In this document: in pieces, positions 6,949 to 10,329 of the stretch | Position numbering within the stretch: position 1 is the first letter of the stretch | Layout: every line of letters starts with the position of its first letter | Made by a program: the position numbers and the translations under genes | The notes under the pieces: model-generated | Told to the model about the DNA's origin: nothing | The model's database searches: none | The model's input: only the letters and a program-made list of their open reading frames with translations | Assembly: GCF_000027125.1 (NCBI RefSeq) | Contig: NC_017626.1 | DNA from: Escherichia coli 042 | GTDB taxonomy: Bacteria; Pseudomonadota; Gammaproteobacteria; Enterobacterales; Enterobacteriaceae | Reading direction: 5' to 3' (one strand) | DNA length: 64,000 nt

Positions 6949-9900
6949 ATGGCTAAAAAACCGACCACCGGTAAAGCAGTTAAAAAAGAGACTAACAGCA
7001 AGCTGAGCTTTCATAAGCAGTTGGTTTTAAACCGCTTTATGTTCCATTTTTTTAAAGATGGCACATTGCAAGGTTTGAAGAATCGGTTAGGCGAGGATCG
7101 CTTTGAAGGCATCCATGAAGATGGCCAAAGCTTATTCTTCCATGAGCTGAGTAACTATTTATTCGAGGTCGATCTTATCGATCTCGATGAACTGCGTCGT
7201 TACGATCTCAATATCGTGCAGCACTGGCAGCAGATAACCGAGCACCGTAATCGTAAAGAAGACACAGTGCTGAACATGAAATATTTTCAGTACTTGTCGC
7301 TTCTGTTTACCGAGATCTACCTGGACTGGTACTTCAACCGTAAACAGCAATTACTCGATGGGCTAAATAACGAGCTGGCAGCATACAATGCTGAAAATGA
7401 TAAAACAGCAAAAGACCGGGCTAATCAGTTCAAATCATACGTTCTGGATGATTTGAATAAACTGGCATACTGGAACGCTACTGGTTCTGGTAAGACACTG
7501 CTATTACATGTCAATATTTTGCAATATTTACATTATTTCCAGAACGGTAATAGCCATCATTACCCGGATAAAATCATCCTGCTTACGCCGGATGAACGCC
7601 TATCGAAGCAACATTTAGATGAACTGGAAAACTCAGGATTTACCCAATACCAGTTATTCGATAAGAGTAAATCCGCGCCATTTAAAGGCACGATTGAAGT
7701 TATTGATATCAATAAACTTGCCGATGAAATGGGTGACAAAACTGTTGCCGTTGAGGCATTTGAAGGCAACAATCTGGTCTTGATTGATGAAGGGCATAAA
7801 GGCACAGGAAGTGCTGCTGGTGCCTGGATGCGCCGTCGTGACAAATTAACGCGTGACGGATTTGCGTTTGAATATTCAGCAACTTTTGGCCAGGCAGTGG
7901 CCGGTGGCAATAATGTTGAGGCAGTTGAAACAGAAATTCAGAAGAAAAAAGCAAAGCTGCTTTTTGAAACAACTGCCTTAGGTAAACTGAGCGAAGAACA
8001 GTTAGCGCAAATAGCATTAACCAGCGAAGAACAACGTGATGCGCGTATTCAGGCGACACGAGAAGTCTATGGGAAATCGATTCTGTTCGATTACTCCTAT
8101 AAATTCTTCTATGAGGATGGTTATGGTAAAGAATCACTGATTCTTAACCTTAATCCTGAAGAGGATAAAAAAGATGAGCGTCGGTATGAGTATTTTACCG
8201 CGTGTTTGCTCAGCTTTTATCAGCAACAATATTTATTCAATAAGAATAAAGAAAAATTAAATGAATTTAATATCGAAAAACCGCTATGGGTTTTTGTCGG
8301 TAACACCGTAAGTGGTGAAGATTCAGACATTCACGCAGTACTGCGTTTTTTAGCATGGTTTTTAAATCATGAATCGCAGGCAAAATCGTGGATTAAAGAT
8401 CTCATTGAAAATAAAGCGCGAATTCTTGATACCAAAGAGCGTAACATTTTTGAAAATCGCTTTACCGCACTAATGAACGGCCCGGAAGATATCTACGCAG
8501 ATATTCTTTCTCGTTTGTTTAACACCACTCACTCAGGTCAGAGACTGCGAGTTCTGAATTTAATAGGCAGTAAAGGTGAACTGGCATTACAGGTTGGTGA
8601 GGCCGAACCGTTTGGTCTTATCAATATTGGTGATGCACCGTCTCTTTACAAAATGTGTGAAGAGGATACGACATTTGATTATCAGAGAGATGATTTTGCG
8701 AAGTCACTCTTTCATACGTTAAATGACAAAGACTCGCAACTACATATTTTGATCGGCTCGCGAAAATTTACTGAAGGCTGGAGCAGTTGGCGCGTCTCAA
8801 CGATGGGATTGCTCAATATGGGCCGTGGAGAAGGTTCACAGATCATTCAGTTATTTGGTCGTGGCGTTCGCCTTAAAGGTCGCAATTATTCTTTGAAACG
8901 CAGTACACCCGGTGAGCGTCCGAAAGGGTTGCATCTGGAAAAATTAGAGACACTGAATGTATTCGGTGTACGTGCCGATTACATGGCAACCTTTAAACAA
9001 TACCTGGAAGATGAAGGGATTACGCCAAGTGACGAGATCCTTGAGCTGAATTTTGAAACTCGGCCAAATATGCCAGCAACCAGGCTTAAAACACTTAAGC
9101 TTAAAGATGGTTATAAAGATAATCAAAGACTCGGCTTTAAACGTGTCTATTTTCCCGAATTGTATGAAGTTCCTGCTGATTTTCAGGGGAAAATTAAGCA
9201 GCCGCATATTAAGCTGGACCTATACCCGAAACTTGAGTCGATTGATACCAGCAGAAAAGGGGACAATACTCCGGTTAACGTGCGTAATGAAGCGAAGTTA
9301 GATTATAAAATCATTAGTGCGTTTGATTTTGATCGGCTTTATCTCGCCATTCAGAATTATAAACTACAACGCGGCTGGTCAAATTTACGTGTGGATAAAC
9401 AACGTTTGATCGACTTTTGTACCGGTAAGACAAAGATCGGAAATAGTTGGTATACCCTTTTGATTCCAGCTTCAGAGCTTGAGATTAAGCAATATGCAGA
9501 TATTGCTAAGCAGGAAGATATTATGCTTCGTCTGCTGACTGATTATACTGATCGCTTTTACAACACATTGAAAAATGCTTATGAAGGTCAGTTTTATGAA
9601 GTCACGCAGGTGAAAGAAGATGATCCTGGTATGATCAAAATGTACCATTTCGAGATCGAAGAAACTGATGATGGGTTGGCATATGCCAGTCGGCTGGAAC
9701 AATTACAACAATTGGTCATCGACGGCGAAATCGGTAAAGCAAAATCCTGGAGTGCATCCGGGATGGTTGCTATTACCTTTGATAAACATCTCTATTATCC
9801 ACTTCTTTCGATTGAAAAAAATGCCAACATACCGCTAAAAATGCGACCGGCAGCACTGGGTGCATCAAGTGAGATTACTTTTGTCCATGATCTTCAGTCT

Positions 9901-10329
9901 TTTGTTGATTCGACAAAAGGGCAGAAAATTATTGGTGATAAAAGTTTATATCTGCTAAGAAATGCGGATTCTAAAAATAGAGGCCTGGGCTTTGCTACTG
10001 CGGGTAATTTTTATCCGGATTTCTTATTGTGGTTAGTCGATGATAAAAGTGGTAAACAATGGTTAAGTCTTATTGATCCAAAAGGCATCCGCAATCTTAA
10101 TCTTGATGATCCAAAGTTCGGATTATATAAAGAAATCAAGAATCTTGAACATAAATTATCGGATGATAACTTATCATTAAGTGCATTTATTGTTTCTGAA
10201 ACTTGTTATGTTGACTTAGTAAACGTACCTGATTCAAAAGAGAATCTGGAAGCCAGAAATGTGCTTTTTATTGAGGATACTGGCTCATTGTATCTGGAGA
10301 AATTATTCAGTAAGATGGTTAGCGAGTAA
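6949..10329 (+). CDS. SF2 helicase with C-terminal PD-(D/E)xK-like nuclease motif (Type III Res-like); gene 3
   Basis: ATG 6949 with GGAGGAGG Shine-Dalgarno overlapping gene 2 stop; Walker A NATGSGKT, DExH box LIDEGHKG, motif VI QLFGRGVRLKG; C-terminal YPDF...LIDPKG. Confidence 0.78.
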   Translation: MAKKPTTGKAVKKETNSKLSFHKQLVLNRFMFHFFKDGTLQGLKNRLGEDRFEGIHEDGQSLFFHELSNYLFEVDLIDLDELRRYDLNIVQHWQQITEHRNRKEDTVLNMKYFQYLSLLFTEIYLDWYFNRKQQLLDGLNNELAAYNAENDKTAKDRANQFKSYVLDDLNKLAYWNATGSGKTLLLHVNILQYLHYFQNGNSHHYPDKIILLTPDERLSKQHLDELENSGFTQYQLFDKSKSAPFKGTIEVIDINKLADEMGDKTVAVEAFEGNNLVLIDEGHKGTGSAAGAWMRRRDKLTRDGFAFEYSATFGQAVAGGNNVEAVETEIQKKKAKLLFETTALGKLSEEQLAQIALTSEEQRDARIQATREVYGKSILFDYSYKFFYEDGYGKESLILNLNPEEDKKDERRYEYFTACLLSFYQQQYLFNKNKEKLNEFNIEKPLWVFVGNTVSGEDSDIHAVLRFLAWFLNHESQAKSWIKDLIENKARILDTKERNIFENRFTALMNGPEDIYADILSRLFNTTHSGQRLRVLNLIGSKGELALQVGEAEPFGLINIGDAPSLYKMCEEDTTFDYQRDDFAKSLFHTLNDKDSQLHILIGSRKFTEGWSSWRVSTMGLLNMGRGEGSQIIQLFGRGVRLKGRNYSLKRSTPGERPKGLHLEKLETLNVFGVRADYMATFKQYLEDEGITPSDEILELNFETRPNMPATRLKTLKLKDGYKDNQRLGFKRVYFPELYEVPADFQGKIKQPHIKLDLYPKLESIDTSRKGDNTPVNVRNEAKLDYKIISAFDFDRLYLAIQNYKLQRGWSNLRVDKQRLIDFCTGKTKIGNSWYTLLIPASELEIKQYADIAKQEDIMLRLLTDYTDRFYNTLKNAYEGQFYEVTQVKEDDPGMIKMYHFEIEETDDGLAYASRLEQLQQLVIDGEIGKAKSWSASGMVAITFDKHLYYPLLSIEKNANIPLKMRPAALGASSEITFVHDLQSFVDSTKGQKIIGDKSLYLLRNADSKNRGLGFATAGNFYPDFLLWLVDDKSGKQWLSLIDPKGIRNLNLDDPKFGLYKEIKNLEHKLSDDNLSLSAFIVSETCYVDLVNVPDSKENLEARNVLFIEDTGSLYLEKLFSKMVSE

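Follow-up and report, generated by a model that had tools for sequence, protein, structure and literature searches.

The window analysed here is a 64,000-nucleotide stretch of the Escherichia coli 042 chromosome (NC_017626.1), and the gene under study is res, the last gene of an operon located on a CP4-like island, at its distal end. The operon comprises three tightly spaced, co-directional genes in the order SNF2, mod and res. An initial annotation of res, made from the sequence alone, had described a Res-like helicase carrying a candidate PD-(D/E)xK nuclease motif near its C-terminus. The three genes and the features of the res product are given below, with nucleotide (nt) positions in the window and amino acid (aa) positions in the protein.

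930..3821, + strand: SNF2/RapA-like ATPase resembling helicases, encoded 5′ of mod as the accessory third protein
3842..6946, + strand: Type III Mod methyltransferase of the beta class, 1034 aa from the ATG at 3842
6949..10329, + strand: res, very probably coding for a Res subunit; superfamily 2 (SF2) ATPase with a C-terminal nuclease, 1126 aa
7444..9018, + strand: the two RecA-like motor lobes of Res, aa ~166-690
7477-7497, + strand: Walker A, ATGSGKT, aa 177-183
7780-7797, + strand: LIDEGH, aa 278-283 (DEGH itself at nt 7786-7797)
7876-7884, + strand: SAT motif
8848-8880, + strand: motif VI, QLFGRGVRLKG, aa 634-644
9736..10326, + strand: predicted PD-(D/E)xK nuclease domain of Res, aa ~930-1126
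9871-9873, + strand: predicted catalytic residue E975
10012-10086, + strand: nuclease motif YPDFLLWLVDDKSGKQWLSLIDPKG, aa 1022-1046
10015-10020, + strand: predicted catalytic residues P1023-D1024
10075-10083, + strand: predicted catalytic residues D1043-P-K1045

The SNF2 gene directly precedes mod, ending 20 nt 5′ of the mod ATG, and an in-frame TTG lies upstream of that ATG at 3827. The res open reading frame (ORF) is uninterrupted, its ATG (6949) is found 3 nt past the mod stop (6946), and res is translationally coupled to this beta-class Type III mod. In Mod, motif IV precedes motif I, with DPPY at aa 497 (nt 5330-5341) and FAGSGTT at aa 774 (nt 6161-6181), both within the Pfam N6_N4_Mtase domain (aa 491-790). 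The protein is matched over its full length by the PADLOC profile MTase_III (PDLC03646, 1624 bits) and is homologous to the solved Type III Mods Mbo45V (6.6e-24), 6k0w (1.1e-19) and EcoP15I Mod (1.1e-12).

The SF2 ATPase core of Res is complete, comprising Walker A, DExH, motif III and motif VI. The residues of these helicase motifs are invariant in an alignment of the query with 76 full-length representatives that share 35-59% identity with it (77 sequences). Pfam shows only ResIII (aa 167-293) and DEAD on this protein, the PADLOC profile REase_III (PDLC03654) matches its full length with 2318 bits, and a search of NCBIfam returned no model matching Res. All four motifs named in the initial annotation are present within a few bases of where it had placed them. 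Its positions for Walker A (7471-7494), DEGH (7780-7800, now LIDEGH), QLFGRGVRLKG (8845-8875) and the nuclease motif (10015-10090) are replaced by those listed above, and the distance from motif VI to the PD motif, put at about 350 aa, measures 378 aa. A full-length AlphaFold2 model built from the 77-sequence alignment reached a mean predicted local distance difference test score (pLDDT) of 90.9 and a predicted template modelling score (pTM) of 0.84, and in structure its motor stands equally close to EcoP15I Res and to HsdR and SNF2 enzymes. A Foldseek search with this model returned only SF2 motors and was uninformative for the C-terminus, and the nuclease domain was for that reason modelled separately.

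The hydrophobic-PD-x(10-30)-(D/E)xK pattern occurs by chance in 15% of shuffles of Res, and a looser PD...(D/E)xK pattern in 37%. The neighbouring SNF2 protein likewise contains a PD...ExK match, the sole one there, at aa 367 in an acidic linker and at chance level. Taken alone, the pattern is poor evidence for a nuclease, and because of this weakness the motif in Res was tested by conservation and fold. A search with the C-terminal 426 aa of Res against 1.84 billion representative proteins identified 1084 relatives at E ≤ 0.001, and 697 at E ≤ 1e-10. Among the best 150 of the 1084 matches, about half are full-length proteins (1000-1260 aa) in which the match is C-terminal, and most of the others look like fragments. 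E975, P1023, D1024 and P1044 are invariant in all 77 aligned sequences. At position 1043, 72 sequences have D and five have E; at position 1045, 67 have K and ten have H. The C-terminus of Res holds the full predicted E...PD...(D/E)xK catalytic set, namely E975, D1024, D1043 and K1045.

The separate AlphaFold2 model covers Res aa 880-1126 (pLDDT 91.8), and in the predicted secondary structure these residues map to the canonical alpha-beta-beta-beta-alpha-beta core. E975 belongs to the helix 973-987, D1024 begins the strand 1025-1030, and the strand 1037-1043 ends at D1043, followed by K1045; the core is completed by the helix 1055-1070 and the strand 1075-1083. The fold neighbours of this domain are Bax1-XPB and the type II restriction endonucleases of the NgoMIV/Cfr10I/Bse634I group, with which it shares only 9-17% sequence identity. 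The nuclease of Res is fused to the helicase and is not a separate protein, and the resemblance implies neither a common specificity nor a common oligomeric state. Conservation and fold together raise the PD-(D/E)xK motif above chance. The C-terminal motif proposed in the initial annotation thereby proved genuine, with catalytic residues conserved across the 77 sequences and a restriction endonuclease core predicted, and structure prediction, the check that it had suggested, gave a restriction-endonuclease-like core topology in confident models.

The same three genes, in the same order, with the same sizes, site and flanking genes, are found on the chromosome of E. coli NCTC86 (NZ_CP019778.1, 5016610-5023115), whose Res is identical to that of the window at 1109 of 1126 positions (98%). 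From this strain Murray et al. (2021) described Eco86II, a Type III system of restriction and modification (R-M) that recognises GAGCC and forms N4-methylcytosine (m4C) on one strand, Mod alone being sufficient for methylation (PMC8259958). A partially purified native Eco86II fraction, supplemented with ATP, produced partial site-specific cleavage about 25 bp 3′ of GAGCC (PMC8259958). In both Eco86II and BspHIV, mod has on its 5′ side an extra gene for a helicase-like ATPase, found in more than 500 genomes, and the Res subunits of these systems carry Walker A/B and a C-terminal PD-(D/E)XK motif (PMC8259958). The same work reports only one putative Type III system in NCTC86 (PMC8259958). In the literature searched, no other paper mentions Eco86II. 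We infer that the NCTC86 locus is Eco86II, because of this single putative system, the extra 5′ helicase gene and the number of GAGCC sites. The NCTC86 mod gene (3123 bp) contains three such sites, and the cloning vector pRRS is, we assume, derived from pUC19. If the vector contributes the three sites of pUC19, the sum equals the six reported for the 5.9-kb Eco86II clone on pRRS (PMC8259958).

These comparisons make it highly probable that res codes for Res in a Type III R-M system of the Eco86II family. The proposal that this gene is the effector nuclease is supported, given an SF2 ATPase fused to a conserved restriction endonuclease domain and near-identity to the Res of a locus that fits Eco86II. 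The operon resembles Eco86II in the C-terminal PD-(D/E)XK motif of Res and in the extra helicase-like gene 5′ of mod, which lacks a nuclease motif. It resembles EcoP1I and EcoP15I in its two-subunit logic, in a beta-class Mod with a central recognition domain, and in a Res whose SF2 ATPase precedes a PD-(D/E)xK nuclease at the C-terminus. Both the restriction activity of this Res family and its nuclease motif have been in print since 2021, so that the motif, though read correctly in the initial annotation, is not new and rediscovers a feature of a characterised enzyme family. The residual novelty is modest and lies in the Mod allele of the window and in the SNF2 partner, not in the nuclease.

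Several points weigh against this assignment. A comparison of the family profile with EcoP1I Res by hhalign gave a probability of 1.4% over 38 columns that cover motifs II-III only, and the PDB, searched with the Res sequence alone and with a profile of 77 sequences, yielded no usable sequence relative. Membership of Type III rests on architecture, on the Mod partner and on published biochemistry, not on the sequence of Res. The equation of Eco86II with the NCTC86 locus is our own deduction, the text of the paper giving no coordinates, and the published cleavage was just partial and obtained with a partially purified native extract (PMC8259958). Finally, the Mod cassette of the window is uncharacterised, and restriction activity of the window allele would follow by analogy with Eco86II.

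This cassette is where the two operons differ, and its position is as follows.

5008..6475, + strand: putatively swapped central Mod cassette (catalytic core and target-recognition domain), Mod aa ~389-878, 1.47 kb

The Mod of the window is 66% identical overall to that of NCTC86, with the divergence mainly central; only four codons differ within the first 385 aa, and only four within the last ~155 codons. At the DNA level the flanks of 5008-6475 are 96-98% identical, and the segment itself aligns over just 175 nt, at 72.6%. The difference appears to be a cassette swap, a pattern known for Type III mod alleles. Because the central catalytic and recognition cassette differs from that of NCTC86, the recognition sequence of the window Mod, and possibly its modified base too, should differ from GAGCC and m4C, neither of which can be assumed for the window. 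The cassette probably specifies a recognition site so far unrecorded. Strains 190693 (NZ_CP048934) and TUM17668 (NZ_CP134353) are among those with exactly this allele. Of 5426 complete E. coli genomes, 190 contain Res; the window cassette occurs in 90 genomes and that of NCTC86 in 34. The window cassette is thus the commoner of the two and the commonest in E. coli, and since they do not add up to the number of Res genes, at least one further mod allele exists. The genomes with Res include many clinical isolates (sequence type 648, ST648, among them), and the system is also found in many Salmonella. It would therefore be a barrier to transformation, conjugation and therapeutic phages, which gives it practical relevance.

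By analogy with Eco86II and the Type III paradigm, a Mod dimer would recognise a short asymmetric site and methylate host DNA on one strand. Where DNA is unmodified and carries sites in inverse orientation, Res would hydrolyse ATP and the complex would move along the DNA, after which the nuclease would cut about 25 bp 3′ of a site. In that paradigm, hydrolysis of ATP converts Mod2Res to a state in which the complex diffuses along DNA (PMC8259958), and from it we take both the presumed Mod2Res stoichiometry and the presumed ATP-triggered switch to one-dimensional diffusion. The initial annotation had coupled the nuclease to ATP-driven translocation; the fusion of SF2 ATPase and nuclease is borne out, and the term translocation oversimplifies the Type III paradigm.

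The SNF2/RapA-like protein is a conserved accessory partner of Mod and Res. Its motifs are located as follows.

1125-1139, + strand: GLGKT
1416-1427, + strand: DEAH
2532-2546, + strand: QRIGR

Pfam assigns it SNF2-rel_dom (1.3e-36) and Helicase_C (3.6e-19), and its nearest solved relative is RapA. DrmD and BrxHII are its best profile matches, with DrmD as the top PADLOC match (4.9e-198). The protein is identical to its NCTC86 counterpart at 952 of 963 positions (99%). Codon differences from NCTC86 comprise 50 synonymous and 11 nonsynonymous changes in the SNF2 gene, and 75 and 17 in res; the large excess of synonymous changes indicates that both genes are kept by selection. For a wider view of the family we surveyed 80 loci from contigs representing one genome per species, 40 of which had enough flanking sequence to judge. 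A Mod homologue lies beside Res in 38 of these 40 informative loci, across phyla, and a SNF2 homologue is also present in 31, upstream of mod in 27 and downstream of res in four. This triad occurs in Proteobacteria, Chlorobi, Chloroflexi, Planctomycetes, Acidobacteria, Actinobacteria and Spirochaetes.

Three other explanations of the operon were weighed against a Type III system. One agrees with it on the identity of res and differs on the mechanism of the system, proposing an obligate three-component defence with parts like those of DISARM and ARMADA, in which the SNF2 protein licenses, loads or assists the Res nuclease in cells. The adjacency of SNF2 in most informative loci of many phyla, the purifying selection on its gene and the published association of SNF2, Mod and Res in more than 500 genomes (PMC8259958) all favour this proposal, as do the defence helicases that head the profile matches of the protein and the requirement of ARMADA defence for the SNF2-like ArmA. 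Yet eight informative loci carry Mod and Res without SNF2, the extra ATPase is dispensable for methylation, none of its peptides was detected in the DNA-cutting fraction (PMC8259958), and the literature searched contains no phage assay on this system. We regard such an obligate arrangement as possible and rather doubtful. The same tentative standing applies to the SNF2/RapA-like ATPase as a functional third subunit in vivo, which would make the system a mechanistically distinct three-component class and not a Type III system with a passenger gene. If this were true, the subunit might clear protein roadblocks, extend or redirect the one-dimensional search, or counter phage anti-restriction.

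The remaining two explanations concern Res itself. The equal structural distance of its motor from HsdR and EcoP15I Res could accommodate a processive double-stranded DNA translocase of the Type I or Type ISP kind, cutting at distant or collision sites. Such a mode of action is very unlikely here, since the nuclease sits at the C-terminus, where Type III Res has it, and not at the N-terminus, where HsdR has it, since there is no HsdS gene and Mod belongs to the Type III beta class, and since Eco86II cuts were mapped about 25 bp 3′ of GAGCC (PMC8259958). Still less probable, to the point of being barely credible, is a catalytically dead C-terminal fold that serves only in DNA binding or sensing and leaves cleavage to something else. 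Inactive restriction endonuclease folds are common in defence helicases, for example BrxHII and RapA, and the histidine that replaces K1045 in ten of the 77 sequences would fit such a loss. However, E975, D1024 and an acidic residue at 1043 are kept in every aligned sequence at 35-59% identity, the operon encodes no second nuclease beyond Res, and Eco86II cleaves DNA (PMC8259958).

Other defence families with related components were also compared. The operon resembles class 1 DISARM and type II ARMADA in combining a SNF2-like ATPase (DrmD/ArmA-like), an amino-methyltransferase and a helicase-nuclease in a co-directional operon. ARMADA II occurs in other E. coli as an island, OI-172 of EDL933, which we take to be located at leuX. 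The window operon differs from both in lacking a YprA/DrmA-type helicase, DUF1998 and a PLD or Vsr nuclease, and in having a Type III beta-class Mod as its methylase and not a PglX-like one. Class 1 DISARM was rejected on the absence of DrmA, DrmB (DUF1998) and DrmC (PLD) from the operon and its flanks, and on the NCBIfam DrmD_b score of the SNF2 protein, 665 under a cut-off of 950. ARMADA was rejected for want of a YprA-like OB-CON-DUF1998 helicase, a Vsr-type nuclease and a PglX-like methylase, Res having only ResIII and DEAD in Pfam. In the Hma system the methylase HmaB is a 5-methylcytosine (m5C) methyltransferase and HmaC is an ATPase; with PADLOC, neither Mod nor Res matched HmaB or HmaC, and the SNF2 protein matched HmaA more weakly than DrmD. 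A Type I HsdR was set aside on the position of the nuclease and the missing HsdS gene, and the BREX-related 'BR' systems, considered for their SNF2 and methylase theme, on missing defining components. Two leads from the literature proved unrelated, namely a Salmonella GATCAG system, which is BREX/StySA, and the ST131 'GI-leuX R-M system EcoMI', which is Eco31I, a type IIS enzyme.

Two further features close the operon at its 3′ end.

10341..10373, no strand assigned: perfect hairpin with a 15-bp stem between the convergent res and 100-aa ORF, from a terminator-like scan and sequence reading
10376-10678, - strand: 100-aa ORF convergent with res

The hairpin is probably a bidirectional terminator that ends the operon. 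The position of the 100-aa ORF is kept in NCTC86 and other strains, and a Pfam search with it gave no match. Promoter-like sites in the operon number 21, not above chance (30.2 in shuffles), and no promoter is claimed. Downstream of the operon lie nanM, nanC, gntP and uxuAB. In NCTC86, fec genes are found upstream on the same island; presumably they are likewise carried by the K-12 KpLE2 element at leuX.

Just 3′ of the operon, at about 10991-11631, are remnants of genes for a phosphorothioated-DNA-binding restriction endonuclease and an HNH endonuclease. The former gene is intact in NCTC86 (873 nt), and the window is without about 430 bp there. Between nanC and gntP (about 15732-16654), a copy of the insertion sequence (IS) IS1A stands beside a C-terminal fragment of a fimbrial gene, according to the annotation of the identical strain 190693, which suggests that the type 1 fimbrial (fim) operon was deleted in this lineage. 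From mdtM to yjiA (about 35664-37135), this strain has nothing but a pseudogene of IS1 and the toxin-antitoxin pair brnT/brnA, as mapped from the collinear TUM17668. We take K-12 to have the immigration control region (hsdRMS, mcrBC, mrr) between these two genes.

In many relatives of the operon, extra genes totalling 1-2 kb are inserted between mod and res, as in the following survey loci.

8150-9993, locus L018: insertion between mod and res
8491-9555, locus L014: insertion between mod and res
8815-9921, locus L064: insertion between mod and res
6972-8003, locus L047: insertion between mod and res
8518-9597, locus L054: insertion between mod and res

The inserted genes match known or candidate defence genes, including HEC-01A/B (an ATPase and its partner), PDC-S02 (PD-DExK), SoFic, PDC-S05 and one for an AbiU/AIPR-like protein. 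A preprint on such 'embedding' gives the hosts as Hma, BREX, DISARM and Type I R-M, with no mention of Type III.

The SNF2-Mod-Res system is decaying in some E. coli strains (genomes NZ_CP008697.1, at positions 8893-11998 of locus L001, NZ_CM151390.1 and NZ_CM180513.1). In ST648, mod is split into two ORFs. In strain 11A20CPO008 res is broken by IS1, and in several E-series strains mod is broken by IS1B.

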